Source: Escherichia phage APC_JM3.2. From it: 39,761 nucleotides of DNA. The stretch is taken from sequence record MG197996.1. The stretch is one strand, 5' to 3'. Shown here piece after piece: positions 1-39,761 of the stretch. The notes below the pieces were generated by a model, which did not search any database, was not told the origin of the DNA, and worked only from the letters and a program-made list of their open reading frames with translations. A program made the position numbers and the translations under genes. Position 1 is the stretch's first letter, and every line of letters starts with the position of its first letter.

Positions 1-441
1 GGTGGGGCAGGAGCTGCCCCCAGAACCTATCACTCTTTTGAACCAGTCAATGAACCTAAAAACATTATGTTCGAACATGTCCGAACAGAGTGTGAAAAAA
101 CTCCTGACCGTCACGAAGAAACCGACAAGGCATTCGAGGAAATATTCTGGTGTGCAGGCATGCGGAAGGCCGGGAAGAAAAACGCAGCTTCAGCATTCAG
201 AACACAGTTCAGGGAATGGCGTAAAACTACCAGGGGGACGGCAAGCGAGTTTGCCACGATGCTGGCAGAAGACATTGCGTGCAGGCTCGGTAAGCAGTTC
301 GGGTTCGACAGGTTGTTACCATCGAGCTACCTGAACGGTCAACGCTGGAACGACGAGAAGCCAGAAACTATTCAACCACAATCCAAACCATCATCCGCAA
401 TCACCGTATCGAAAACTGGCTACGTGTTTTTCGACAGGTGA
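1..441 (+). CDS. Replication protein, C-terminal region (partial in window; reading frame continues across the circular junction)
   Basis: Frame 1 is open from window position 1 to the stop at 439-441; in the circularised sequence it is open from 39707 with an ATG at 39716; internal ATG at 67; sits between the HTH initiator ORF and the primase-helicase; no domain recognised by eye. Confidence 0.45.
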   Translation, partial: GGAGAAPRTYHSFEPVNEPKNIMFEHVRTECEKTPDRHEETDKAFEEIFWCAGMRKAGKKNAASAFRTQFREWRKTTRGTASEFATMLAEDIACRLGKQFGFDRLLPSSYLNGQRWNDEKPETIQPQSKPSSAITVSKTGYVFFDR

Positions 442-551: not shown

Positions 552-2432
552 ATGACTCCAAGTGAACTGAGCGACCTGCTTTGGGCGCAGGTTGACAGGG
601 TGGCTCCGCACCTGTTGCCAAACGGCAAGAAAGAGGGGCATGAGTGGGTTGCCGGTAACGTCAACGGTGACAAGGGAAACAGCCTTAAGGTCAACCTTAG
701 CGGCAAGAAAAAATGGGCTGATTTCGCTGAGGGAGACGGCGGTGACATGCTTGATTTGTGGATGGCATGTCGTGGAATTAACCTGCATCAGGCTATGCAG
801 GAAGCGAAAGCATTTCTCGGTATCAAGGATGACGATCACCATTTCGATGCCAAACGTGAGAAAAAATTCTCCAGACCTGATCGCAAGAAAATCGCCCGCT
901 ACGTTACCAGAACAGAATCCCATCTTGAGTACCTGCAATCGCGTGGTATATCGCCAGAAGTCGTAAAGCGCTACGAGGTTGTCAGCGGCAAGGTGTGGAA
1001 TGGAGAGCGAGAACTGGATGCTCTGGTGCTTCCGTACAAACGCGATGGTGAGTTGTTGCAGGTCAAGCGAATCAGCACTGATCGCCCGGACGGGAAGAAA
1101 GTAATTATGGCAGAAGGTGATTGCGAACCTTGTCTGTTCGGATGGCAGGCTCTGGACGCTGGCGTGAGGGCGGTTGTACTTTGCGAAGGCGAAATTGATT
1201 GTATGAGCTATGCGCAATACGGCATCTCGGCGTTATCCGTGCCGTTTGGTGGCGGGAAAGGCGCTAAGCAACAGTGGATTGAGTTTGAGTATCACAACCT
1301 CGACAGGTTTGAGGAAATATTCATCTCGATGGACGTTGATGATGTTGGTCGTGAAGCCGCAAGGGAAATCGCAAGCCGACTCGGTGAACATCGTTGCCGT
1401 CTTGTTACGCTACCGTACAAAGACATCAACGAATGCCTGATGAACGGTGTTACCGAGGATGAAATCTGGCAGTACATCGGCACGGCATCCTACTTCGACC
1501 CCGAAGAACTCTACAGCGCGCGAGAGTTTTACCAGGACACTATCAACGCTTTCTACGGCAAGCAGCAGTATCTGTTTAATCCACCGTGGAAATCTCTGGC
1601 AGATAAATTCCAGTTCCGTGAGGCAGAGTTGACGCTGGTCAATGGTGTGAACGGTCACGGAAAAACTGAGGTTGTCGGGCATATGGCACTTGAGGCAATG
1701 CGTCAGGGTGTGAAGACGTGCATCGCGTCACTTGAGCTGAAGCCAGGCATTCTCCTTAAGCGACTTACCCGTCAGGCGACGTGCTGCAAGATGCCGCCAG
1801 TGCTGGAAATTGACTCTGCATTTAAATTTTATGACGAAAGACTTTGGGTGTTTGGCCTGACCGGAACGGCGAAAGCCGACAGGCTGATCGAAATATTCGA
1901 CTACGCTCGCCGCCGGTACGGCATCCAGTTATTCATCATCGACAGCCTGATGAAATGCGGCATAGGTGACGATGACTATAACGGGCAGAAGGCGTTTGTT
2001 GACTCGATTTGCGATTTCAAAAACAAAACAAACTCCCACGTCATTCTCGTTGCTCACTCGCGAAAAGGAGACAGCGAAGAAAAACCAACCGGGAAAATGG
2101 ACGTAAAAGGCTCTGGAGCGATAACAGACCTGACAGACAACCTTTTCATCATCTGGCGTAACAAGGCTCGCGAGAGAGCGTTACAGAGAGTTCAGAGTGG
2201 TGAAAAGATGTCAGAGAAGGACGAACAGTTACTGGCATCTCCGGCATCTGTTTTGATGCTTGAAAAACAACGTAACGGCGAAGGTTGGGAAGGTGGTGTC
2301 CCGTTGTTCCTTGACGAGCAATCGCACCAGTTCCTGCAACTTGAATCAGGATCGCCATATAGCTACATCGCCAATATGCCGAAATCGGAATATGACGAGG
2401 CGTGGCGACAGGAAAACGTGACGGAGTATTAA
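552..2432 (+). CDS. Bifunctional DNA primase / DnaB-family replicative helicase
   Basis: 626-aa ORF, GAGG RBS before ATG 552; N-terminal primase-like region, C-terminal RecA-fold helicase region with Walker-A-like NGVNGHGKT and Walker-B-like LFIIDSL. Confidence 0.8.
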   Translation: MTPSELSDLLWAQVDRVAPHLLPNGKKEGHEWVAGNVNGDKGNSLKVNLSGKKKWADFAEGDGGDMLDLWMACRGINLHQAMQEAKAFLGIKDDDHHFDAKREKKFSRPDRKKIARYVTRTESHLEYLQSRGISPEVVKRYEVVSGKVWNGERELDALVLPYKRDGELLQVKRISTDRPDGKKVIMAEGDCEPCLFGWQALDAGVRAVVLCEGEIDCMSYAQYGISALSVPFGGGKGAKQQWIEFEYHNLDRFEEIFISMDVDDVGREAAREIASRLGEHRCRLVTLPYKDINECLMNGVTEDEIWQYIGTASYFDPEELYSAREFYQDTINAFYGKQQYLFNPPWKSLADKFQFREAELTLVNGVNGHGKTEVVGHMALEAMRQGVKTCIASLELKPGILLKRLTRQATCCKMPPVLEIDSAFKFYDERLWVFGLTGTAKADRLIEIFDYARRRYGIQLFIIDSLMKCGIGDDDYNGQKAFVDSICDFKNKTNSHVILVAHSRKGDSEEKPTGKMDVKGSGAITDLTDNLFIIWRNKARERALQRVQSGEKMSEKDEQLLASPASVLMLEKQRNGEGWEGGVPLFLDEQSHQFLQLESGSPYSYIANMPKSEYDEAWRQENVTEY

Positions 2433-2509: not shown

Positions 2510-2926
2510 ATGAAAAAACTAACCTTTGAAATTCGATCTCCAGCACATCAGCAGAACGCTATTCACGCAGTACAGCAAATCCTTCCAGACCCAATCAAAC
2601 CAATCGTAGTAACCATTCAGGAACGCAACCGCAGCATTCGGCAAAATGCACGCCTTCACGCGATGCTATCTGAAATAAGTAAGAAGGCTACATATCATGG
2701 AAAAGCAAGAAATATTGAGTTTTGGAAGGGGTTATTCGTTTCTGGTTGGCAGATTGCAACCAACCAGCACCCTGAGATTATATCAGGGTTAGAAGGTGAG
2801 CTAATAAACATCAGAGAGAGTACGGCGACTCTATCTGTAAAAAAAATATCCGAAATAATGGACTACATAGAAGCATATTGTGCCATGAACTCAATTCATC
2901 TTAGCGAATGGAGGAATTATGATTGA
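2510..2926 (+). CDS. ninB: NinB recombination protein (C-terminus replaced relative to lambda NinB)
   Basis: MKKLTFEIRSPAHQQNAIHAVQQILPD... matches lambda NinB N-terminus as recalled; GGGAGAGGGAAG RBS before ATG 2510. Confidence 0.85.
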   Translation: MKKLTFEIRSPAHQQNAIHAVQQILPDPIKPIVVTIQERNRSIRQNARLHAMLSEISKKATYHGKARNIEFWKGLFVSGWQIATNQHPEIISGLEGELINIRESTATLSVKKISEIMDYIEAYCAMNSIHLSEWRNYD

Positions 2927-3521
2927 GGTTTGGGTAGATATCGAAGGGATTCCATTTTATCAGGTTAGCAATAAAGGAAATTTCAGGTCTATTACGAGGG
3001 AAGTTACAGTAACATCAACCAGACAGAGGCCATATAAGAAAATAATTAATGGCACTAGCGTAAAACCATTCAAGTGCAAGTCGACAGGATATCTTCAAAT
3101 AAAGGTATACGGTAAGAAATACAGCGCCCACAGGATAGTTGCGAAAGCATTCTGTACAGGGTTCTGTGATGGCTTGGTAGTTAATCACAAAAATGGGCAA
3201 AGAGATGACAATAGGGCTGAAAACCTTGAATGGGTATCACATTCTGAAAACTCAAAGCACGGATATAAACAAAATGGAAGAATACCTATATCGCTAGGTA
3301 AATTTAGTGGTGATCATCCTGCCAGTAAAGCTGTTATTTCTACTGACATGAAAACTGGTGAGGAGGTTTATTATGAAGCAGCTATGGATGCTGTCAGAGA
3401 AGGATTTGATAGTTCGTCAATTAGTCGTTGCTGTAATGGCGAAAGCTCATATCACAAAGGAAGATTCTGGCGATTTGCAAATGAAACAATGAAAGCGAGA
3501 TGGGGAGATCGGGCTGCATGA
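2919..3521 (+). CDS. HNH homing endonuclease (NUMOD4-like N-terminus plus HNH motif)
   Basis: 200-aa ORF with strong GGAGG RBS; motif VNHKNGQRDDNRAENLEWVSHSEN; ORF terminates in KARWGDRAA, the recalled lambda NinB C-terminus. Confidence 0.8.
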   Translation: MIEVWVDIEGIPFYQVSNKGNFRSITREVTVTSTRQRPYKKIINGTSVKPFKCKSTGYLQIKVYGKKYSAHRIVAKAFCTGFCDGLVVNHKNGQRDDNRAENLEWVSHSENSKHGYKQNGRIPISLGKFSGDHPASKAVISTDMKTGEEVYYEAAMDAVREGFDSSSISRCCNGESSYHKGRFWRFANETMKARWGDRAA

Positions 3522-4390
3522 TAAATGTCGTTAGTTTCTCCGGTGGCAGGACGTCAGCATATTTGCTCTGGCTAATGGAGCAAAAGCGACGGGCAGGTAA
3601 AGACGTGCATTACGTTTTCATGGATACAGGTTGTGAACATCCAATGACATATCGGTTTGTCAGGGAAGTTGTGAAGTTCTGGGATATACCGCTCACCGTA
3701 TTGCAGGTTGATATCAACCCGGAGCTTGGACAGCCAAATGGTTATACGGTATGGGAACCAAAGGATATTCAGACGCGAATGCCTGTTCTGAAGCCATTTA
3801 TCGATATGGTAAAGAAATATGGCACTCCATACGTCGGCGGCGCGTTCTGCACTGACAGATTAAAACTCGTTCCCTTCACCAAATACTGTAATGACCATTT
3901 CGGGCGAGGGAATTACACCACGTGGATTGGCATCAGAGCTGATGAACCGAAGCGGCTAAAGCCAAAGCCTGGAATCAGATATCTTGCTGAACTGTCAGAC
4001 TTTGAGAAGGAGGATATCCTCGCATGGTGGAAGCAACAACCATTCGATTTGCAAATACCGGAACATCTCGGTAACTGCATATTCTGCATTAAAAAATCAA
4101 CGCAAAAAATCGGACTTGCCTGCAAAGATGAGGAGGGATTGCAGCGTGTTTTTAATGAGGTCATCACGGGATCCCATGTGCGTGACGGACATCGGGAAAC
4201 GCCAAAGGAGATTATGTACCGAGGAAGAATGTCGCTGGACGGTATCGCGAAAATGTATTCAGAAAATGATTATCAATCCCTGTATCAGGACATGGTACGA
4301 GCTAAAAGATTCGATACCGGCTCTTGTTCTGAGTCATGCGAAATATTTGGAGGGCAGCTTGATTTCGACTTCGGGAGGGAAGCTGCATGA
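3518..4390 (+). CDS. ninC: NinC (PAPS-reductase-like protein, lambda ORF290 type)
   Basis: [42 protein letters not shown]... near-identical to lambda NinC as recalled; ATGA overlap with upstream stop. Confidence 0.9.
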
Positions 4391-10549: not shown

Positions 10550-11038
10550 ATGGCAGCACCAAAGGGCAACCGATTTTGGGAGGCCCGCAGTAGTCATGGG
10601 CGAAATCCTAAATTCGAATCGCCTGAGGCGCTGTGGGCTGCTTGTTGTGAATACTTCGAGTGGGTGGAAGCTAACCCGCTATGGGAGATGAAGGCGTTCT
10701 CGTATCAGGGTGAAGTGATACAAGAGCCTATCGCCAAGATGCGAGCGATGACTATTACAGGCCTCACTCTGTTCATTGATGTGACGCTTGAAACATGGCG
10801 CACATATCGCCTGCGAGAAGATTTATCTGAAGTCGTTACGCGAGCAGAGCAGGTCATCTACGACCAGAAATTCTCTGGCGCAGCCGCTGACCTTCTCAAC
10901 GCTAACATCATCGCCCGTGATTTGGGTCTCAAAGAGCAGTCGCAAGTTGAAGACGTGACACCTGATAAGGGAGATCGCGATAAGCGACGCTCTCGTATCA
11001 AGGAGCTATTCAACCGTGGAACTGGACGCGATTCTTGA
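10550..11038 (+). CDS. 3: Terminase small subunit (P22 gp3 type)
   Basis: 162-aa [51 protein letters not shown]... matches P22 gp3 as recalled; contains pac-like sequence. Confidence 0.9.
10817..10844 (+). other. pac: pac site (headful packaging initiation sequence) inside the terminase small subunit gene
   Basis: GAAGATTTATCTGAAGTCGTTACGCGAG matches the P22 pac sequence as recalled from the literature. Confidence 0.6.
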
Positions 11039-12515
11039 TAACCTGAGCGACGAAGAGCAAATCGAGTTGCTCGAGCTACTCGAAGAAGAAGAGAACTACC
11101 GGAACACACACCTGCTATATGAATTTACGCCATACAGCAAACAGCGTGAGTTCATCGACGCCGGACATGACTACCCAGAGCGATGCTTTATGGCTGGTAA
11201 CCAGCTTGGTAAGTCATTTACTGGTGCTGCTGAAGTCGCGTTTCACCTTACAGGGCGTTATCCGGGCACAAAAGGCTATCCTGCTGATGGTAAATATGGC
11301 GGTGAGTGGAAAGGTAAGCGTTTCTATGAGCCTGTTGTCTTCTGGATTGGTGGCGAGACAAACGAGACTGTAACCAAAACGACTCAACGCATCCTGTGCG
11401 GTCGTATCGAAGAGAATGATGAGCCTGGCTACGGTTCCATACCGAAAGAAGACATCATTAGCTGGAAGAAGTCTCCTTTCTTTCCGAACCTTGTTGATCA
11501 TCTTCTGGTTAAGCATCACACGGCTGATGGCGTTGAAGATGGCATTTCAATCTGCTACTTCAAGCCATACTCGCAAGGCCGTGCTCGCTGGCAGGGTGAC
11601 ACAATCCACGGCGTGTGGTTTGACGAAGAGCCACCATACAGCATTTATGGCGAAGGTCTTACCCGTACCAACAAATACGGGCAATTCTCAATTCTGACGT
11701 TTACCCCGCTGATGGGGATGTCTGACGTTGTTACCAAGTTCCTGAAGAATCCCAGCAAGTCGCAGAAAGTGGTCAACATGACCATCTATGACGCAGAGCA
11801 CTACACCGACGAGCAGAAAGAGCAAATCATCGCATCCTATCCCGAGCATGAGAGAGAGGCGCGTGCTCGCGGCATTCCTACTATGGGTAGTGGTCGAATC
11901 TTCCAGATACCGGAAGAGACGATTAAGTGTCAGCCGTTCGAGTGTCCTGATCACTTCTACGTAATTGGCGGGATGGATTTCGGATGGGATCACCCGCAGG
12001 CGCAGGTTCAACTTTGGTGGGATAAGGACGCAGACACAATCTACGTTTCACGCGTGTGGAAGGCGAAAGAAAAAACAGCCGTTCAGGCATGGGGAGCCGT
12101 TAAATCATGGGCGCATAAAGTGCCAACCGCATGGCCTCATGACGGAAACCAGCATGAGAAGGGCGGCGGTGAGCAGCTCAAAGGGCAGTATGCCGACGCT
12201 GGTTTTATGATGTTGCAGGAGCATGCGACATGGCCTGATGGCGGTAACGCTGTGGAGCCTGGCATCACTGAATTGCGCGACATGATGCTCGATGGTCGCT
12301 TCAAAGTATTCAACACCTGTGAGCCATTCTTTGAGGAGTTCCGCCTCTATCACCGTGATGAAAACGGGAAAATCGTCAAGCTTAACGACGACGTTCTCTC
12401 AGCCGTTCGCTATGCATACATGATGCGCCGCTTCGCCAAAATGATGCGCGACATCAAAAAACCAAAAGAGAAAAAGATACCAGCCCCAATCAGGCCCATC
12501 GCACGGAGAACTTAA
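11016..12515 (+). CDS. 2: Terminase large subunit (P22 gp2 type)
   Basis: 499-aa ORF, GTG start overlapping gp3 end; [25 protein letters not shown]... ATPase and nuclease regions. Confidence 0.95.
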
Positions 12516-15606: not shown

Positions 15607-16901
15607 TGGCATTAAATGAAGGTCAACTGGTCACGTATGCTCTGGATGAAATCATCGAAACCGTCCAGAACCTGACGCCAATGGCGTCCAAAGTGACAAA
15701 ATACACCCCTCCGGCAGAATCCATGCAACGTTCAAGCAACACCGTGTGGATGCCTGTTGAGCAGGAAGCGCCAACTCAGACTGGCTGGGATTTAACTGGC
15801 AACGCTACCGGTATTCTGGAACTTTCCGTGAAATGCAACATGGGCGATCCGGATAACGATTTCTTCGAGCTTCGTGCAGATGACCTGCGTGATGAGCGTT
15901 CTTACCGTCGCCGCATCCAGGCATCCGCCAAAAAACTGGCGAATAACATTGAGTCAGCGATTGCCAAACAGGCAACTGAAATGGGCTCGCTTGTTGTTCA
16001 CGATACCCACGCAATTGGTCCATCTACTGGCCTGTCTGGCTGGGATTTTGTGTCTGATGCAGAGCGCCTGATGTTCTCCCGTGAGCTAAACCGCGATATG
16101 GGCATCAGTTACTTCCTGAACCCTGACGATTACCGCAAAGCAGGCCGCAACCTGGTAGATGGTGACATCTTCGGTCGCGTTCCTGAAGAAACGTATCGCA
16201 ACGGTACTATTCAGCGTCAGATTGCTGGGTTTGATGAAATTCTTCGCTCACCGAAACTTCCGGCAGTTACCAAGTCAACCGCTACTGGTGTAACTGTTTC
16301 TGGTGCGCAGAAGTTTAAGCCGCAGGCATACACCCTTGATACCGATGGTAACAAAGAGAACGTCGACAACCGTGTTGCAACGGTAACCGTATCCTCCACC
16401 ACCGGATTTAAGCGCGGCGACAAAATCAGCTTCACTGGTGTGAAATTCCTGTCTCAGATGGCGAAGAACGTGCTGACTGATGATGCTACTTTCTCAATCA
16501 CCCGTGTGATCGATGGTACTCACCTCGAAATCACGCCGAAACCGATTGCACTGGATGACGCGTCACTGACAAAAGAAGAGAAGGCTTACGCTAACGTAAA
16601 CACCTCTCTTGCTGATACCACTCCGGTAAATGTTCTGAACGTGGCAACAACCACCGCTAACGTGTTCTGGGCTGATGACTCAATCCGCCTGCTGTCTCAG
16701 CCGATCCCGGTAACCCATGAACTGTTTGCTGGCATGAAAACGTCTTCCTTCAGCATTCCTGGTATTGGTGTTAACGGCATCTTCGCAACGCAGGGCGATA
16801 TCAACACTCTGTCTGGTAAGTGCCGTATTGCTGTGTGGTATTCAGCATGTGCTGTACGACCAGAGGCAATTGGTGTTGGTCTGCCTAACCAGACCGCGTG
16901 A
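15606..16901 (+). CDS. 5: Major capsid (coat) protein (P22 gp5 type)
   Basis: 431-aa [23 protein letters not shown]... clear but diverged similarity to P22 coat as recalled. Confidence 0.95.
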
Positions 16902-16908
16902 TAACCAG

Positions 16909-16932
16909 AGGGAGCTTCGGCTCCCTTTTTTA
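16909..16932 (+). terminator. Intrinsic terminator after the coat gene
   Basis: Stem GGGAGC / GCTCCC with TTCG tetraloop followed by TTTTTTAT. Confidence 0.8.
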
Positions 16933-16945
16933 TCTGGAGACAAGC

Positions 16946-17189
<244 letters not shown>

Positions 17190-17212
<23 letters not shown>

Positions 17213-17690
17213 TTTAGTTCTTGCGGCATTACGTAAGCTCGGTGTGGCATCAAATGCCACGTTAACCGATGTCGAACCGCAGTCTATGGAAGACGGCGTC
17301 AACGACCTTGAAATGATGATGGCTGAATGGCTTGGCGGTGATGCGTCACCTGGTATCAACGTTGGCTACATTTTTGCTGATGCAGATGTTGCTCCGGATC
17401 CGGGCGATGAGCACGGTTTATCAAATAACGCTATCAATGCCGTCATTTTCAACCTTGCCTGCCGAATTGCTCCAGATTATGCGCTGGAAGCGTCTGCAAA
17501 ACTTATAACCACTGCCAGATACGGGAAAGAGCGACTCGTCAAACAGTCTGCAATGGACAGGGCAAAAGCAGCTAAATGTAAGTCCGGTTATCCAAACCGT
17601 ATGCCTGTTGGTAGTGGTAACCAGTTGGCGAAGTGGAATGGTTGGAATTACTTCCACCGAAAGGAACCTTGCGATAACGGGAGCGAATAA
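17190..17690 (+). CDS. 4: Head-completion / tail accessory protein (P22 gp4 type)
   Basis: 166-aa [36 protein letters not shown]... similar to P22 gp4 as recalled. Confidence 0.9.
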
Positions 17691-22303: not shown

Positions 22304-25039
22304 ATGGCTAATTACCGTGATTTGTTAGAGCAGGCTGGCGCACGTTACGGTGTGCCAGAAGGGTTGATGACTGCACTGGGTGCCAAGGAGTCTTCTTACA
22401 ACCCTGCCGCAGTAAGCTCCGCAGGGGCTGTAGGATTGACTCAGGTCATGCCTGGGACATGGCGTGATATGGGTTATACCGATGAGCAAATGCAAAACCC
22501 CGAATATCAGGCTGACGCTGGCGCGCGCTATCTGGCAAAGATGTACCAGCAGTTTGGTAACTGGCGTGATGCTCTTCAGGCTTATCACGACGGTCCCGGC
22601 AACGTTATGAAGGCAAAGCGTGGTGAATATACGCCAGGACCTGAAGGCCGCGGTTACGTTGATGATCGCTTTGCTCAATGGGCGGGTGACCCGGTGACAG
22701 ACTCAACAGTCGAACAGCGCGCCACCTCTGCAAAGGTACATCCTCAGCAAGACCCTAACAACCCGTTTGCACAACTGGAAGCACAGTCATCCGAACAAGT
22801 ATCGGCATCAGGCGTGCAGTCAGACCCAAATAATCCATTTGCTCAGATTGAGCAGCAGGCAGCCAGTCAGCAGCCACCTCAACCAGTAAGTTCTGTCGCA
22901 CCGAAACCTGTTCAGCAACAAACAGTTAATCAGGCCAATAATGAACCAGCACGTGAAGAACCATCATTGATGCAACAAGCTGGCGATTGGCTCACAGGTG
23001 GTCAAAGTGCAGGGCAAATTGCAGAGCAGGTTGGTCGTGGTCTGGTAAACATACCATTTGACGTATTGCAGGGTGGCGCAAGTCTGATTAATGCAATCAG
23101 CCAGGGGCTTGGTGGCCCCAAGGTTTTGGACGATGTCTATCGTCCAGTAGAACGACCGACAGATCCTTATGCGCAAGCTGGAGAGTCAATAGGCGGTTAT
23201 CTTGTTCCTGGGGCAGGAGTAGCTGGAAACATGGTCATTGGTTCTCTCGCTGACGCGGCGAATCAACGGGGTGATTTTGCCGAAAATGCTGCTATTAATG
23301 CCGGACTTAACATTGCTACGCATGGCCTGATAAATGGCGTTACCCTTGGTGTTCGTGGTGCATCAAATATAATTAGTGGCAATAAAACATCTGCACAGAG
23401 AGCGACCACTGCGGCAACAGAAACATCACCATTCTCCGGTGATACCGCTGCAGCAACAAATCCTGCGGTTCATGCCGCAGAGGCAAGAGTAGCACAAGGT
23501 GTACCAATGACGCCTGCGACGAGGAACCCAGAGGAAGTCGTTCGCACAGTAGCAGCACAAAAAAGGCCAAATCTCGCTTCATCGCTTGATGAACTAGATA
23601 TCAATCCTCAGGCTGAAGTTCTGGAGTCTGCTGAAAGGCTTAATGTTGATTCATTACTCCCTTCACACTTTTCCGGGAACGAGCAATACAAGGCAGTTGA
23701 GCAAGCAATCAAGTCCCGTGCGGGTTCTGCTCTACAGGTGCAGGAAAATGAAGCAATCAGGCAGCTAGCACAGGGCGCGGGGGAGATAATTGATCGCGTT
23801 TCCGGTGCAAAAGATGCTCTTGGTATGAGCGACAAGTTTATTGATACGGTCAATGGAAGAATGTCTGCGCTGATGAAACGAAGCGACCAGCTTTATCGCA
23901 ATGTTGAAAAGGCGATGCCTGCAGGTGCAAAAATTGATGCGCCATCAACAAGGTCAATGCTCAAACAGGTGGCAGAAGATCTTGGCGGGATGAAAAACCT
24001 TGACCCTATTGAAAAGAGAGTCTTTCGGGCAGTTAATCCAGGTAAGAACGGCGCATTAACTTATGCAAATCTCAATAAGCAACGACGACTTGTTGGTGAT
24101 GCACTTCATAAGAATTCTGGACCATATAAAGATGCTGATCGCGCTGCTTTATCGAGGCTTTACGGTTCGCTCGCCGATGATCAAAAGGCGGCGCTGTCAG
24201 AGACAAATGCATTACGTGATTTTGAAGTTGCTCAGAGGCTTGTTCAGATGCGAAAAAGCATGGAAGAGCAAATGATTAATCTAACTGGCAGAACGCTGAA
24301 CGGTGATGTTTCTCGCAAAGCAACTACAGCACTACAGGCAATGTCGAAAGGCGATGCCAAAGGATTTCGTGAATTGATGCAAAACACGCCGTCCAGGAAG
24401 CTAAGAACCGAGCTACTGGGAACAGGTCTTCGGGATATGCTTTCGAACGGAAAACGTGGCGCTGATTTTAATCCTGCAGGGTTTGCTGATTGGTATCAAA
24501 ACATGTTAGCAAACGGGCAGATGCGCAACCTTGCCCGACATTTACCAAAAGAGACTATGTCAGGTCTGAACGATGTATATAAGGTCGCAAAGGCTATCAA
24601 AGACGCAAAATCTTACGAGATAACTACAGGAAGACTAAACGAGTTCGTCAAACGGTTTAATCGCGTCACTGCGGCAAATGAATTTGTTGCTAACCATGCC
24701 CAACGCATTGGCACTGCGGTTGGTTCAACTGTGTCAGGACCGTTCAGTGCAGTAGGTGCTGTTGCTGGGTCAGAAATTGGGGCAAAAGTCGCCAGCAAAA
24801 TCAGGGCGATGGGCGGCGCTGCATCAATGGAATCTGCAGAAAAGCTAATTAGCTCACCAGAATTCCAGAAAGCAGCAAGGCTGGCAGTAAAACAAGCACC
24901 AGAAAGCATCGTTGATACAACTGTAAGACGCTCTTCTGCTTGGCGCTCGTTTTACAACTCACTTCCAGAATCAGATAAGAAAACCATATCAAGGCTAGGC
25001 ATCATGTACTGGATGAACAGTGATAATAACCAGAAGTAA
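22304..25039 (+). CDS. Ejection protein (gp16 position) with N-terminal soluble lytic transglycosylase domain
   Basis: 911-aa ORF; N-terminus [38 protein letters not shown]... is an SLT-type motif (E-S-S-Y, GLTQ); internal DPNNPFAQ duplication. Confidence 0.8.
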
Positions 25040-25317
25040 CGGAAAGCCACGGATGGTTAGTTGCAGTCTTTTTTATATAAATCTCTGTCCATAAATCCTC
25101 CTGTTTACCAAAACTATATCAAACTTTAACGCAATGCTGCGCAACTTAAGTGACTGTCAGGTTGATAACAGACACTCTTTTTTGCATGATTCCTTTAGAC
25201 CATCACAATTGATGAAGAATCATGAAAAGAAGAACTCTTCTAAAGTCTTTGCTCGGCCTGACGTCACTCTTACCAGTTAAGTTTGCAGCATCTCAAAACC
25301 TGCAAGGTAAAAGTATA

Positions 25318-27216
25318 ATGTCAGACATTACACCCAATGTTGTAGTGAGTATGCCTTCGCAACTCTTCACTATGGCTCGTTCTTTTAAAGCCGTAGCTAA
25401 TGGAAAGATTTATATCGGGAAAATTGACGCTGACCCGGTAAACACTGAAAACCAGATTCAGGTTTATGTAGAGAACGAAGATGGTTCTCACGTTCCTGTT
25501 TCGCAACCAATCATCATTAACGCTGCTGGATATCCGGTATATAACGGACAGATTGCTAAATTCGTTACCGTGCAAGGCCATTCTATGGCTGTTTATGATG
25601 CCTATGGTGCTCAGCAATTCTATTTCCCAAACGTGCTGAAGTATGACCCGGACCAGGCATTGCCAGCATTTAAGGCTGATTTGACTGGTCCTGATGGTGC
25701 TGCCCTTGTTGGTTATGGAGATTCCACTGTCGAGGCAGAGTTAGACATCCTGACTGCATCTAATGGGTGGTACGTAACTCCTGATCAGTTCGGCGCGAAG
25801 GGTGATGGCACTACCGATGACACAGCGGCGATTAGTGCGGCAATTGCTGAGTGTGCTTCTACAGGGAAAACATTGCTCCTGCTTAATAAACGCTATGTGT
25901 GGAATGGGCCAACCACATCCACCGATAAAATATCCGTTATGGGAGTCCGTCGCCCAAGTCCTGACGCGACGCTATCCAAGCTGGAAAACGGCAGCATCAT
26001 TGTCGGTACCATGATATTTTCCGGAACTCGTGTTCAGGTGCAAAACTTTGGTGTAGACCACGGTTCAGCCACATTCACTTCTGGTGGTGATGCGCTAGTG
26101 CTTTCCGCAACTGGAAAGAATGGGCTGTTTGGTATCATCCGAAACTGTGTAGGTCTTGGAAGAAACTCATCTGACGCTTACCATGCAATTCTCTGTGAGG
26201 GTTACAAATACTCAACGGTGAGAGATATCATTGGCTGCCAGAACTTATATGGCTATGCACAGAAATGTAATTATTCCGTATCAAGCGGTATTGTAGTAAA
26301 AAACAACCAAAACGGAATAATCATCAAATCAGACAGTGTATTTGGCGATGGAAGCCAATCAATTCTTAGTGATGCTGTTATTGATGGTAATGGATTAACA
26401 TCTATTGGCGTTTGGGTTTTCTCGATGGATGCACAACTTCAAAAAGTAAACATAAGTAACGTGACCTCGTCTGGTTGCTCTTATGATATCGTGGTGCAGG
26501 CTGCTGAGAGCGTCATTAATGAAATTAATATTAATAACGTAGCTACGAGTTTATCACGCATTGCATCAATCTGCCTGGCTGGAACTGCAGTTGATAAAAT
26601 TTACACAGCCAATATCAGCAATGTTGCTATAGGTGAAGCAGCGGGACTGCTAATAGATGCCCAGACATGTAACTTCCTTAACCTGACAAACGTAACTGGA
26701 CGAATAACAAACGAATCAACGCATGCTAACGACTCAATAAACATTGGAGCATTAGTAGGAAGCTCTAACATTAGCAACGTGTTCCCTACCATCAACTACA
26801 GTCAGGATGTACTTGCTGGCATTACCTATCTTAATAACTATAAAAACAACACGCTTACCAATTATAAGGCGAACGTGTTTGGTGTTGGGGCTCCGAAACC
26901 AGGTTACGACACGCAAAACATTGATACCAATGTCGGAAGCATGTACCTGAGGAGCAGTGCAACTAACTCTTCATTCCTGAGGTTAACGCCACTTAGTAAC
27001 TCATCCATTACGACGCTTAACATCACCACTCAAGCAGGTGGAGTGATAAGCCCGGGTTACACATGGTGGTTACAAAACGCATCACCATCATTCACGCTGT
27101 CTATAGTTCCATCATCAGGAGGTCACATCGTCACTTCAGGCAACTCTACCAAGGTGCTTAGCGGTGGAGACAAGATAGGATTCATGTTCGACGGAGAGAC
27201 ATGGATTCAGATTTGA
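25318..27216 (+). CDS. Tailspike protein: conserved P22-family head-binding domain plus divergent right-handed beta-helix receptor domain
   Basis: N-terminus [34 protein letters not shown]... (P22-family tailspike head-binding domain); downstream [15 protein letters not shown] motif typical of pectate-lyase-fold depolymerases. Confidence 0.85.
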
Positions 27217-27484
27217 TGATGCAGCCATGGATGGCTACATGAATGGGTGGTGCTTGTTTACGAAGTAAACCAGAAGCACAAACGCGACGATGTTAATTGC
27301 AACTACAATTTTGCTATTCATCAGTGACCCCTATAGGTAGGTAAAGTTAGAGTCTCATTGATTTCCATGTACATTCAAGTCTCCATGGTCTTGCGTGTCT
27401 ATCATTCAGTCTTACACTCGTACTTCTACCACTCAAAAAATTCCCTATACGCATTCGCCTGCTTAGCAAAAGCATACTCCATTC

Positions 27485-27532
27485 TTGTTGAACTCCGCCA
27501 CCTACAAATAATTACTGTATGTGCATGCAGCG
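27485..27532 (+). promoter_or_regulatory. Candidate sigma70 promoter with overlapping LexA-like (SOS) box upstream of the UmuD'-like gene
   Basis: -35 TTGTTG 27485-27490, 17-nt spacer, -10 ATAATT 27508-27513; TACTGTATGTGCATGCAG 27513-27530 has CTG-N10-CAG and a perfect TACTGTAT left half. Confidence 0.4.
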
Positions 27533-27549
27533 ATTATCGGAGGTGCATC

Positions 27550-27846
27550 ATGGGATTCCCCAGTCCTGCACAAGACTGCATAGAGGAGCACATATCGATC
27601 GACAAGCGCATCATATCGAGGCCAGTGGCTACCTACTTCATGAAAACGGGGGCAACACACTACCGGGAAGGCATCCTAAGTGGCGCTCTCTTTGCCGTTG
27701 ATGCATCTTTGAACCCATGTGATGGCTCATTGCTGGTTTGTGCAACTGATGGTGAGTTCAGAATTAAGCGTTACCTGACATACCCGCAACCGCATCTGGA
27801 AAATCTGGATAACGGAAAGAGGGAGAGGATTCCTGACAAGAATTAG
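27550..27846 (+). CDS. UmuD'-like (peptidase S24 fold) protein lacking the catalytic serine, C-terminally shortened
   Basis: 98-aa ORF, GGAGGT RBS 7 nt upstream; MGFPSPAQDCIEE..PVATYF..DGEFRIKRY aligns by eye to E. coli UmuD from Gly25 (the UmuD' N-terminus); GDSM serine site replaced by ATHY. Confidence 0.65.
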   Translation: MGFPSPAQDCIEEHISIDKRIISRPVATYFMKTGATHYREGILSGALFAVDASLNPCDGSLLVCATDGEFRIKRYLTYPQPHLENLDNGKRERIPDKN

Positions 27847-27951
27847 GCCTCTGAGACTTCTCGACCTGTATTTGTGGTGATCACCTACATCATCAACGAT
27901 GCGCGTGCAGGTTAGTTTGATGACTACCCGCTGAAGTGAAAATTGTGTTGT

Positions 27952-28245
27952 GTACCAAATTGCGTACCAAACTAAAATCACAAATCATGAAACCCTTGTT
28001 CATGGCGGTTCTCAGGGGTGTTGCGCGTAATCGTGAAAGAGGAAGGTAGGTTGTTTATCTGTGTCTGTCATTGTCTAGCATTGTCCACTGTAGTTAATTA
28101 ACTGTATGTTATAACTCGAAAAACAACCCTTTTTTAACCTGAGTATGTCTACGAACGTCAAATATAGTTGTTTACTGTGCGCTGTTGTCCATGTGATATT
28201 GTGTACCAGATGTGTACCAAACTATTATTTCTGAGCGTACCAAAT
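27952..28245. repeat. attP: attP-like region with five direct arm-type repeats GTACCA(A/G)A(T/C) upstream of int
   Basis: GTACCAAAT 27952-27960, GTACCAAAC 27964-27972, GTACCAGAT 28203-28211, GTACCAAAC 28214-28222, GTACCAAAT 28237-28245. Confidence 0.45.
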
Positions 28246-28252
28246 ATTATTT

Positions 28253-29431
28253 ATGGCTATAAGCGACACAAAACTGCGTACTATTTATGGTAAACCATAT
28301 TCGGGCCCACAAGAAGTGGCTGATGCCGATGGCCTCAGCGTACGAATTTCACCGAAGGGGGTCATCCAGTTCCAGTACCGCTATCGCTGGCATGGCAAGC
28401 CTAATCGACTTGGGCTTGGTCGATACCCATCCCTGTCTTTGAAGGATGCCAGACAGATCACTGCTGACTTGCGAAAGCTCTATTTCTCAGGAACGGATCC
28501 ACGCACTTATTTTGAAGAGAAGGTGGAGAACTCCATGACGGTCGCCCAGTGTCTTGACTACTGGTTCGACAACTACGTCTCTACAACTCTCAGAGAAAAG
28601 ACCCAGGCACTTTACCGATCAACGGTTATGAAGCGCATGCATGACGCCTTTCCTAATCGTCCGGCATCTTCTATCACGGTTAAGCAATGGGTTGACCTGC
28701 TTACCGAAGAAGAAAGAGATAATCCACGCCGAGCAAGGCAGGTGCTAAGCCAACTAAGATCAGCAATAAGTTGGTGCATGCGGCGTCAGTTGATAGATAG
28801 TTGCGCAATTATGAGCATCCAACCAAGGGACTTCGGCTCCCGCGCTGAGGTAGGGGATCGGGTACTGTCGTATCACGAACTGGCTAAGATTTGGCTTGCT
28901 ATTGAAAGAAGCCGTGCGTCTACCTCAAATAAGCTACTTCATCAGATGCTTATGCTGTGGGGGGCGAGGCTCTCAGAGCTTAGGCTGGCAAAAAAGACAG
29001 AATTTGACCTACTGGAAAACGTATGGACCGTACCGAAAGAGCATAGCAAGATGGGTAATGTTATCCGCCGTCCAATCTTCGAACAAATTAAGCCTTTCCT
29101 CGAAAAGGCCATGACAACGTACAATGATGTTCTTTTCTCTGGAGAAGACATAAACAAACCGATCAGCATCGCTGCAGCCAACCGATTCGTAAATAGAATA
29201 AGGGGAGGGATGGATCTCGGTTACTGGCGAACACACGATTTCAGAAGAACGCTTGTTACACGTCTGTCCGAGATGAATGTCGAGCCTCATGTTACTGAGC
29301 GAATGCTCGGTCATGAACTTGGCGGGATAATGTCCGTATACAATAAACACGACTGGATAGAGGCTCAGCGCAAAGCGTATGAGCTTCACGCTGATAAATT
29401 GTTCTGGCACATCAGGAGCATTTCTGATTAA
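28253..29431 (+). CDS. int: Tyrosine integrase (arm-binding N-terminal domain, P4/CP4-57-like)
   Basis: 392-aa ORF; N-terminal DGLSVRISPKGVIQFQYRYRW... arm-binding type; C-terminal catalytic region with HDFRRT and VYNKH (catalytic Tyr). Confidence 0.9.
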   Translation: MAISDTKLRTIYGKPYSGPQEVADADGLSVRISPKGVIQFQYRYRWHGKPNRLGLGRYPSLSLKDARQITADLRKLYFSGTDPRTYFEEKVENSMTVAQCLDYWFDNYVSTTLREKTQALYRSTVMKRMHDAFPNRPASSITVKQWVDLLTEEERDNPRRARQVLSQLRSAISWCMRRQLIDSCAIMSIQPRDFGSRAEVGDRVLSYHELAKIWLAIERSRASTSNKLLHQMLMLWGARLSELRLAKKTEFDLLENVWTVPKEHSKMGNVIRRPIFEQIKPFLEKAMTTYNDVLFSGEDINKPISIAAANRFVNRIRGGMDLGYWRTHDFRRTLVTRLSEMNVEPHVTERMLGHELGGIMSVYNKHDWIEAQRKAYELHADKLFWHIRSISD

Positions 29432-37802: not shown

Positions 37803-38534
37803 TTAGTAGTCAACTACAGACCACCAGAAGATTCTTCCGATGATCTCGATATCGCTTAGATTCTTTTCTTCTTGTGGGTATTCCAGTGAGTTAAAGCTTC
37901 TAATGCTTACCTTGTCAGGCCCTGATCGAAAGAGAATCTTAATGCGTTTCCAACCGTTCTCGTTAATGGCGTAAATCTTTCCGTCAACTATTTTCTTATC
38001 GTTGGTGTTAACAGCAACTGTTGTTCCATCAGGAATGTTTGGCTCCATGCTGTTGCCACGAGCCGGAAAACAAACAACCCCGCTTCCATCACTGTTCGCG
38101 CCAACTCTGCGAAGGGTTGATTTGGAGAAGCGCAACATAAAGCCGTTGTGATCTTCATCAATCACCCGACCATCCCCGCATGCAAACTCAATATCTTTAA
38201 GGTAAGGAACTTCAACTTCATCACCTCTTAAAGGCGTTCCTCCATCCCATGGGTCCAAATATCCCCACGTGCTTTCATGAGGAATAGAAGATTTTGGATT
38301 ATAAGGTTCAACTCCCTCATCACGCATTGGCCCAGTCCCATCGGAAAGCCATTCCGTACGAACTCCAAGCACTTTTGATATTTCAAAAAGTTTGCGCGTA
38401 TTGCGTGTTTTTCCAGACGTAAGTTTCCAGACGCTTGGCTGAGACATGCCAACAGCATTGCCAAGTGAAGCCTGAGTAAACCCAGCCTGATCCATCGCGT
38501 ATGTAAGCCTTTGAGAAAAAGTATCTAGTTTCAT
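37803..38534 (-). CDS. cI: CI-type prophage repressor (HTH plus S24 autopeptidase domain)
   Basis: 243-aa ORF; N-terminal HTH ..QASLGNAVGMSQPSVWKL..; C-terminal GNSMEP (Ser nucleophile) and ..GWKRIK (Lys) S24 motifs. Confidence 0.9.
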   Translation of the reverse strand: MKLDTFSQRLTYAMDQAGFTQASLGNAVGMSQPSVWKLTSGKTRNTRKLFEISKVLGVRTEWLSDGTGPMRDEGVEPYNPKSSIPHESTWGYLDPWDGGTPLRGDEVEVPYLKDIEFACGDGRVIDEDHNGFMLRFSKSTLRRVGANSDGSGVVCFPARGNSMEPNIPDGTTVAVNTNDKKIVDGKIYAINENGWKRIKILFRSGPDKVSIRSFNSLEYPQEEKNLSDIEIIGRIFWWSVVDY

Positions 38535-38992: not shown

Positions 38993-39289
38993 ATGACACA
39001 AGCAAGCTACAGCAAGCCAACACAGCGAGAAATTGATCGCGCTGAAACTGATTTACTCATCAACCTGTCAACGCTTACCCAGCGCGGTCTGGCAAAGATG
39101 ATTGGCTGTCATGAATCGAAGATAAGCAGAACGGACTGGAGGTTTATTGCTTCGGTCTTGTGTGCTTTTGGAATGGCATCAGACATCAGTCCGATTAGCA
39201 GGGCTTTTAAGTATGCGCTTGATGGACTCACCAATAAAAAACGCCCGGCGGCAACCGAGCGTTCTGAACAAATCCAGATGGAATTTTAA
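38993..39289 (+). CDS. cII: CII transcriptional activator
   Basis: 98-aa ORF; C-terminal ..LTNKKRPAATERSEQIQMEF identical to lambda CII C-terminus as recalled; HTH in the middle. Confidence 0.9.
   Translation: MTQASYSKPTQREIDRAETDLLINLSTLTQRGLAKMIGCHESKISRTDWRFIASVLCAFGMASDISPISRAFKYALDGLTNKKRPAATERSEQIQMEF
39236..39262 (-). terminator. oop-like antisense terminator within the cII 3' end
   Basis: Minus-strand GGUUGCCGCCGGGCGUUUUUUAUUGG, matching the lambda t_oop region as recalled. Confidence 0.45.
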
Positions 39290-39311: not shown

Positions 39312-39455
39312 ATGCGAAAAACGCAGGAAAATAAACGCGTTAATCACCGAAAAGATGTGCTACGTGACCAGTTTTATCAGTGGGTTAATCCAGCAATAGC
39401 TGTGCCACTGAGAGAAATACTTAACAGGTACAAAACTTCGGAGAAGTCAAAATGA
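39312..39455 (+). CDS. Small basic hypothetical protein (47 aa) translationally coupled to the replication initiator
   Basis: GAGGT RBS 7 nt before ATG; stop TGA overlaps the ATG of the downstream gene. Confidence 0.4.
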   Translation: MRKTQENKRVNHRKDVLRDQFYQWVNPAIAVPLREILNRYKTSEKSK

Positions 39456-39761
39456 GCATGAATCTTATGGCTAAGGCCATGAATATAAAGGTTGGCAACC
39501 CATTGAGAAAACTGGTTCTGATTAAACTTGCCGATAACGCCAATGATAATGGCGAATGCTGGCCTTCATATCAACATGTCGCTGACCAATGTGAGGTGAG
39601 CAGATCGACAGTAAAAAGTCACATTAGGGCACTGGAAGAGATGGGGCTTTTGAAAAGGGAATTCAGAAGAAAAGGAGAGCTTAACCAGTCAAACGTTTTT
39701 TATCTGACTCTGGATAATGCACAACAAATCCAACCAGAATCAGGTGGGGCAGGAGCTGCCC
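39451..39761 (+). CDS. Replication initiator, N-terminal winged-HTH domain (ORF runs off window end and stops at position 41 after circularisation)
   Basis: MSMNLMAKAMNIKVGNPLRKLVLIKLADNANDNGECWPSYQHVADQCEVSRSTVKSHIRALEEMGLLKR.. typical phage replication-initiator HTH; GGAGAAG RBS. Confidence 0.8.

Follow-up and report, generated by a model that had tools for sequence, protein, structure and literature searches.

A 19-nt terminal repeat in a P22-like phage genome matches one unit of a copy-variable tandem array within an O-like initiator gene

In lambdoid phages, the replication origin lies in the middle of gene O and consists of iterons (four in lambda and six in 933W and P27) and an AT-rich tract; the minimal unwinding unit comprises two iterons and the AT tract, and a lambda-type origin usually needs at least two iterons (PMC7466680). 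In the Stx phages, replication has been linked to toxin production (PMC7466680). A related arrangement occurs in the P22-like phage epsilon34, in which a lambda-type O, with the origin annotated inside its gene, accompanies the same kind of toprim helicase as the one described here. P22 itself uses gene 18/12 for replication, in place of which the window (that is, the whole 39,761-nt stretch of DNA that was analysed) encodes an HTH_36 initiator and a toprim-helicase.

A further point of reference is the use of assembly-derived direct terminal repeats as a signal of completeness, in which an exact repeat at both ends denotes a circular path. The window likewise begins and ends with one exact repeat, with the difference that the length of the overlap is here set by a biological repeat unit (U) and not by the k of the assembler. 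We consider it highly probable that the window is a complete circular or circularly permuted P22-like genome whose opening point falls on one unit of a biological tandem repeat, and that its ends are non-physical.

Circular closure, gene content and packaging

The terminal repeat is the 19-mer GGTGGGGCAGGAGCTGCCC (unit U), present exactly at both window ends on the plus strand (Table 1). Searches of both strands found no further match in the window at up to two mismatches, and U was absent from all dinucleotide-preserving shuffles of the window (0/100); as none is expected by chance, a chance origin is rejected. The longest exact overlap between the ends is 19 nt and is not extendable, as the left U is followed by C and the right U is preceded by A. 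Apart from the U pair, the only repeat of at least 17 nt in the window is the hexamer run described below. Together with the base that follows it, U gives a 7+3+7 dyad (GGGGCAG-GAG-CTGCCCC).

Table 1 Coordinates of the features discussed in the 39,761-nt window
Feature	Position	Strand	Details
Left terminal U	1-19	+	followed by the right-flank context CCAGAACC, as in the last array unit of relatives
3' part of the split 'O-like' initiator gene	1-441 (beyond U: 20-441)	+	frame 1, stop 439-441
AT-rich tract	21-100	.	60-70% AT against ~50% locally, over ~80 nt just downstream of U; candidate DNA-unwinding element
Toprim/DnaB-like primase-helicase, partner of the initiator	552-2432	+	626 aa; Toprim_2, AAA_25, DnaB_C; in relatives toprim domain-containing protein, DNA primase/helicase or 'P'
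Small terminase, P22 gene 3 type	10550-11038	+	PF16677 GP3_package, E=3.5e-33
P22 pac site GAAGATTTATCTGAAGTCGTTA	10817-10838	+	exact 22-mer, 0 mismatches, 0 expected; nt 268-289 of gene 3
Large terminase, P22 gene 2 type	11016-12515	+	Terminase_6N E=1e-47, Terminase_6C E=3e-28
(CAGAGC) x 8.7 perfect hexamer run	17091-17142	+	52 nt; internal control, assembled straight through; repeats k-mers up to k=46
Tailspike with P22 head-binding domain	25222-27216		Head_binding E=9e-66
attP region and tyrosine integrase	28026-29431 (integrase 28253-29431)	+	sbcB junction in lysogens; Arm-DNA-bind_3, Phage_integrase
CI-like S24 repressor	37803-38534	minus	
cII	38993-39289		
5' part of the split 'O-like' initiator gene	39452-39761	+	HTH_36 winged-helix N-terminal domain and start of the Gly/Ala linker
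Right terminal U	39743-39761	+	preceded by the left-flank context CAGAATCA, as in the first array unit of relatives

When one U is dropped and the window ends are joined, the two partial genes at the ends become a single uninterrupted ORF of 243 aa that starts at 39452 and terminates with the stop codon at 439-441. Its product matches Pfam HTH_36 (PF13730, E=4.6e-14, residues 17-67) and also HTH_24 and HTH_20, and no match to Phage_rep_O (PF04492) was found in it; in relatives, the corresponding gene is annotated as a helix-turn-helix domain-containing protein or as 'O' and is followed by a toprim protein. The 1219-nt sequence spanning the junction is 98.7-99.2% identical to, and collinear with, 24B, Min27, Stx2a_F403/F451 and many E. 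coli prophages, and the exact one-copy junction is contiguous in five IMG/VR contigs, one metagenome contig and one closed E. coli chromosome (CP053079). The joined ORF and the collinearity with relatives together point to circular closure. The sequence-only reading of this DNA, which had reported an exact 19-nt terminal repeat and taken it as the mark of a circular or permuted genome, is therefore borne out on both counts. It had further proposed that linearisation artificially splits the genes at both ends, which holds for the splitting itself but not for the plural, as just one gene is cut, and had named headful packaging as a possible background, for which the P22-type gp3, TerL, portal and coat together with the exact P22 pac 22-mer in gene 3 provide support.

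Scans against Pfam and PHROG recovered one complete P22-like lambdoid gene set and no host genes in the window, and the phage is a temperate P22-like (Lederbergvirus-like) E. coli podophage. An early/nin region (primase-helicase, NinB, HNH endonuclease, PAPS-reductase-like moron, NinG, NinI-like phosphatase and Q antiterminator) and lysis genes (holin and endolysin) are present, together with genes for the head (P22_portal, E=4e-164; P22_CoatProtein, E=1e-164), for the tail and DNA ejection (gp4, gp10, gp26, ejection proteins and tailspike) and for lysogeny and recombination (UmuD-like moron, tyrosine integrase, Sak4-like recombination genes, CI-like repressor and cII). TerS (gp3), TerL, portal, scaffold, coat, gp4/10/26, the ejection proteins and the head-binding domain of the tailspike are common to the window and to P22 and the P22-like E. 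coli and Shigella phages of the Lederbergvirus group (IME10, HZ41, Dewey and SPN9CC), which are likewise temperate and possess a lambdoid early region. The structural half is 96-97% identical to that of the E. coli phage IME10 and ~83% identical to that of P22, and the genome is ~2 kb shorter than that of P22. Among phage records and closed E. coli genomes, none covers at least 80% of the first 25 kb, and the window therefore represents a new mosaic of known modules; the relatives found by an exact look-up of the CI repressor are all mosaic, with several kinds of replication module. An exact look-up of the primase-helicase protein gave no match, a 40-mer from the tailspike is absent from IMG/VR, and in the metagenome collection the left flank followed by U matched six contigs, all unrelated to the window.

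Several accessory genes were also observed. Directly after ninB, the nin region carries a PAPS-reductase-like gene (3500-4390; PHROG 33262, E=3e-94) and an HNH homing-endonuclease-like gene (2919-3521). The product of the last ejection-protein gene (22304-25039) has 911 aa and, in its N-terminal part, an SLT lytic transglycosylase domain (Pfam E=3e-25), and its counterpart in related prophages is annotated as 'transglycosylase SLT domain-containing protein'; gp16 of P22 is much shorter and is not known to have an SLT domain. Between the tailspike gene and attP, at a position typical of morons, lies a UmuD-like or S24 peptidase-like ORF (27358-27846; PHROG 811, E=1e-36), whose nominal TTG start gives 162 aa, of which only residues 60-160 match the family.

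The terminase genes are 87-96% identical at the nucleotide level to those of the P22 group. The pac 22-mer occurs exactly once, and both its sequence and its position match the pac site annotated in P22virB-3 and g341c. By analogy of sequence, a headful packaging series would start at this gene 3 site, ~10.8 kb into the window, and pac-initiated headful cutting would produce virion DNA with circular permutation and terminal redundancy, so that the window ends would be non-physical. The head of P22 holds ~43.4 kb; a head of the same capacity would give this phage a terminal redundancy of ~3.7 kb. Were the 19-mers physical termini instead (that is, a short direct terminal repeat or filled-in 19-nt cohesive ends, as in cos phages of the P2/186 type), their length would fit the cohesive ends of P2-type phages, which are also 19 nt, and terminal repeats of linear virion DNA can indeed surface as direct terminal repeats in assemblies. 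However, terminase, portal and coat are of the P22 type, the exact P22 pac site lies 10.8 kb away, the repeat lies far from the terminase genes, midway along an ORF that prophages carry intact, and U is an internal tandem repeat of one to nine copies in integrated prophages. We reject physical termini, whether cos ends or terminal repeats, as having next to no probability in a phage with a pac-type terminase and with U inside an ORF that prophages keep whole.

The attachment site is also remote from the window ends. In lysogens, homology to the window starts at 28026, where the phage borders the 5' end of the host gene sbcB a short way upstream of the integrase gene, which places attP 11.7 kb away from the window ends. 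P22 integrates elsewhere, at thrW. The phage is temperate and encodes an integrase and a CI-like repressor, and short direct repeats are typical of prophage ends, so that the repeat might be thought a duplicated att core (attL/attR) and the window a prophage cut from a chromosome; yet this phage–host junction lies at 28026, the window ends fall within a replication gene that is contiguous in prophages, and the window contains no host genes. Duplication of an att core is rejected on these grounds and is, in our judgement, as good as impossible. From the positions of pac and att, both away from the ends, it follows that the window ends correspond neither to packaging ends nor to att sites. At the integration site itself, the 5' end of sbcB (exodeoxyribonuclease I), phage sequence substitutes the first ~46 nt of the host gene (L060 1501-1546), and in another set of prophages homology to the window begins already at 27871. 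Several copies of the motif GCGTACCAAA / TGTGTACCA(A/G)A surround attP (27948-27971 and 28200-28245) just upstream of the integrase gene and could be arm-type integrase binding sites.

A tandem array of variable copy number

In relatives, U occurs in a tandem array at exactly this spot of the initiator gene, with periods of 21 and 24 nt that are both in frame, and the array encodes GGAGAA(R/LG) repeats in the linker of the initiator. Where the joined window has one U, its closest relatives, 24B and E. coli 90-3040, read U-GG-U-TAGGG-U; these 45 extra in-frame nucleotides (that is, two more copies of U) are the sole structural difference at the junction. Copy number ranges from one to six among IMG/VR and metagenome contigs, counted within the context CAGAATCA...CCAGAACC, and reaches nine and eight in two closed chromosomes (L048 and L052, respectively); in closed E. 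coli genomes, the spans of the matches imply copy numbers of 1, 3, 4, 5, 6, 7 and 9. Among 14 intact arrays that were sampled through sequence 2.4 kb distant from the array, 12 hold two to four copies and the other two hold one. Judged by these sequences, the U array, with its periods of 21 and 24 nt, is a tandem repeat of variable copy number.

This variability bears on genome length. A unique length of 39,742 bp had been read from the terminal repeat alone; the figure stands for a one-copy allele but does not hold generally, given that the number of U copies varies from one to nine in relatives. We therefore regard length as dependent on the allele, with 39,742, 39,763, 39,766, 39,787 bp and so on as candidates, of which 39,742 bp is the shortest allele.

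The unit itself is 96-100% identical where its flanks are only 61-73% identical, a figure that reflects ascertainment in part, as the loci were found by searching for U, and that we do not count as independent proof of constraint at the DNA level; slippage and concerted evolution of a coding repeat could alternatively account for the high conservation. Longer and degenerate arrays were seen in distant initiator alleles with flanks of 61-73% identity (L020, L023, L031, L032, L034, L036, L038 and L040), in which perfect U alternates with shorter elements resembling half-units (GGTCAGGAGCTGCCC) at spacings of 38-63 nt. These arrays may represent an older, more complex origin layout.

The same module is found in the Stx phages 24B, Min27 and Stx2a_F403/F451, where the stretch from cII through the initiator into the beginning of the helicase gene is 98.7-98.9% identical to the window across the junction, with U in the same frame and context and in three tandem copies, against one in the joined window. 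Their virion modules (Sepvirinae) are unrelated to those of the window, and their helicase is longer, with 968 aa and an inserted LAGLIDADG-type segment compared with 626 aa here. A 968-aa partner helicase with a weak LAGLIDADG_3 match was likewise observed in two Stx-phage relatives (L048 1161-4067 and L052 1182-4088, compared with 552-2432 of the window), which suggests, as far as sequence can tell, that the toprim-helicase of 24B-type phages has acquired an intein or homing-endonuclease insertion.

Why the contig ends at the array

The window ends coincide with the exact borders of the maximal repeat between the first and the last U in relatives, which an arbitrary opening point would hit with a chance of ~1 in 39,742. 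Other assemblies break at the same place: about ten IMG/VR contigs end inside the array, one (L119) starts at the same base as the window and another (3300045988_051161, 35.8 kb) has a 49-nt terminal overlap made of this array.

A simple artefact would be a pure one-copy circle opened at an arbitrary point, with the 19 nt being the k-mer (or k-1) overlap of the assembler. Overlaps of length k on circular contigs are common among assemblers, and one-copy alleles occur in nature. The overlap nevertheless coincides at its start and its end, base for base, with the maximal U repeat of relatives, and a graph with nodes of 19-20 nt would have broken at the perfect hexamer run, where no break is seen. 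As the window crosses this 52-nt run, which a graph with nodes of up to 46 nt is unable to cross, the 19 nt are not the k of the assembler. We reject a k=19 overlap and hold an artefact of this kind to be very improbable.

The hexamer run encodes (EP)9 near the C terminus of a small ORF (16898-17212) between the coat and gp4 adaptor genes, and in another frame it overlaps the nominal start of the ORF at 17085-17690, in which the match to the PHROG Ad3 adaptor begins only at residue 36. This run, too, is probably a variable tandem repeat prone to slippage.

To follow how different arrays would assemble, error-free de Bruijn unitigs were built from circular genomes in a toy model, which is simpler than real assemblers with their bubble popping and read threading. 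All scenarios break at 17.1 kb when k is 47 or less, and at k of 48 or more (48, 55, 77 and 127) pure genomes with one to four copies of U close into a cycle. A pure nine-copy genome gives terminal overlaps of 31-105 nt, and mixtures of alleles that all have at least two copies either overlap by 21 or 40 nt or end elsewhere. A unitig identical in every base to the 39,761-nt window arises solely from a mixture of the one-copy allele with any longer allele. On the strength of this model, we would give about an even chance to U copy number having been mixed in the sequenced sample, and longer alleles (+21, +24, +45 nt and so on) were probably present there too.

A pure phage with at least two copies of U could also lie behind the window, if the assembler or a curator stopped at the outermost units, unable to place the spacers (GG and TAGGG) or the middle copies. 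Such alleles form the large majority in relatives, contigs often end inside the array, a lambda-type origin usually needs at least two iterons (PMC7466680) and an overlap-layout or manual assembly could yield the same ends. The unitig model, however, closes cleanly for such phages once k is large enough for the hexamer run, whereas a small k breaks elsewhere too, and long pure arrays give other terminal overlaps (31-105 nt), so that this account requires a non-de-Bruijn or manual step in the assembly. We consider a pure phage of this type unlikely. Equally unlikely is its corollary, that both terminal units are real and none should be trimmed, in which case the true length would be 39,763, 39,766, 39,787 bp or more.

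In our preferred reading, the window is with high probability a complete circular P22-like genome linearised inside its HTH_36 'O-like' initiator gene, and the terminal 19-mer is one dyad-symmetric unit of an array with 21/24-nt periods that has one to nine copies in relatives. The assembly graph branched at this array and left a contig running from 'U + right flank' to 'left flank + U'. The most economical cause of such a branch may be that a one-copy allele (39,742 bp) coexisted with one or more longer alleles and so created an indel bubble that the assembly did not resolve.

For annotation, the window is best treated as a complete P22-like temperate genome and rotated (for example, to start at gene 3) such that the initiator gene is unsplit. 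For assembly, the direct terminal repeat mirrors a biological tandem repeat and not the assembler's k; trimming one U fixes a copy number and an initiator length that the data perhaps do not support and yields just one allele out of several that are possible. Many public contigs are cut short at this array.

A candidate origin compared with known systems

Circular closure of a P22-like headful phage is textbook knowledge. What the present analysis adds is that U is an iteron-like variable tandem repeat within an initiator gene, and that it marks a candidate origin for the module of HTH_36 initiator and toprim-helicase that the window has in common with the Stx phages 24B and Min27. We lean slightly, in view of the layout, towards the U array consisting of initiator-binding iterons of a lambda-type origin in the initiator gene, which would at the same time encode the GGAGAA(x) linker of that protein. 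An AT profile and a palindrome scan placed a perfect 12-bp palindrome (ATGTTCGAACAT, 67-78) within the AT-rich tract downstream of the left U; this tract may, by analogy, serve as the unwinding element, its AT enrichment (21-100) being modest in a region that is also coding. Just one U stands at each end of the window, compared with two to nine tandem copies in relatives.

Support for a pairing of initiator and iterons, which are expected to co-vary, comes from a single comparison. Another allele of the same HTH_36 initiator (L050) is identical in its N-terminal 40 and C-terminal 19 residues and has diverged in the recognition helix and wing; it partners the same 626-aa helicase and carries, at the same place, a different dyad tandem repeat (GCACACCCCCTGTGC, 4.5 copies with a period of 21-24 nt). 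In this one pair of alleles, therefore, the sequence of the repeat co-varies with the DNA-binding domain of the initiator. Literature searches on iterons, P22-like phages, Min27 and 24B returned only the paper on the lambda-O-type Stx origin (PMC7466680), and found none that contains the U sequence or describes the array or experiments on its binding or replication.

More tentatively, and with somewhat less than an even chance in our estimate, the array may be the origin of a widespread lambdoid module (that is, HTH_36 initiator and toprim/DnaB-like primase-helicase) in which the number of iterons is hypervariable (1-9) and maybe heterogeneous within one phage population, such that slippage would tune initiator binding, replication rate or copy control as well as the length of the initiator linker. 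The candidate origin, highly variable in copy number, lies in a replication module that P22-like phages have in common with Stx phages of clinical importance (24B and Min27).

Set against ori-lambda and the lambda O-type Stx origins, the candidate occupies the same position, in the middle of the initiator gene and downstream of the DNA-binding domain. In the arrays of relatives, as in ori-lambda, there are direct repeats of ~19 bp with dyad symmetry and a spacing of ~21-24 bp; the modestly AT-rich tract that follows, with its palindrome, may correspond to the AT-rich tract of ori-lambda. Iteron number differs between phages in the lambda-type origins as well, but the U array is far more variable (1-9). 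The sequence of U is unrelated to the lambda iterons, and the ori-lambda initiator belongs to Phage_rep_O whereas the initiator here belongs to HTH_36. The candidate origin would thus be analogous to ori-lambda in its layout, while being served by a protein outside the lambda O family.
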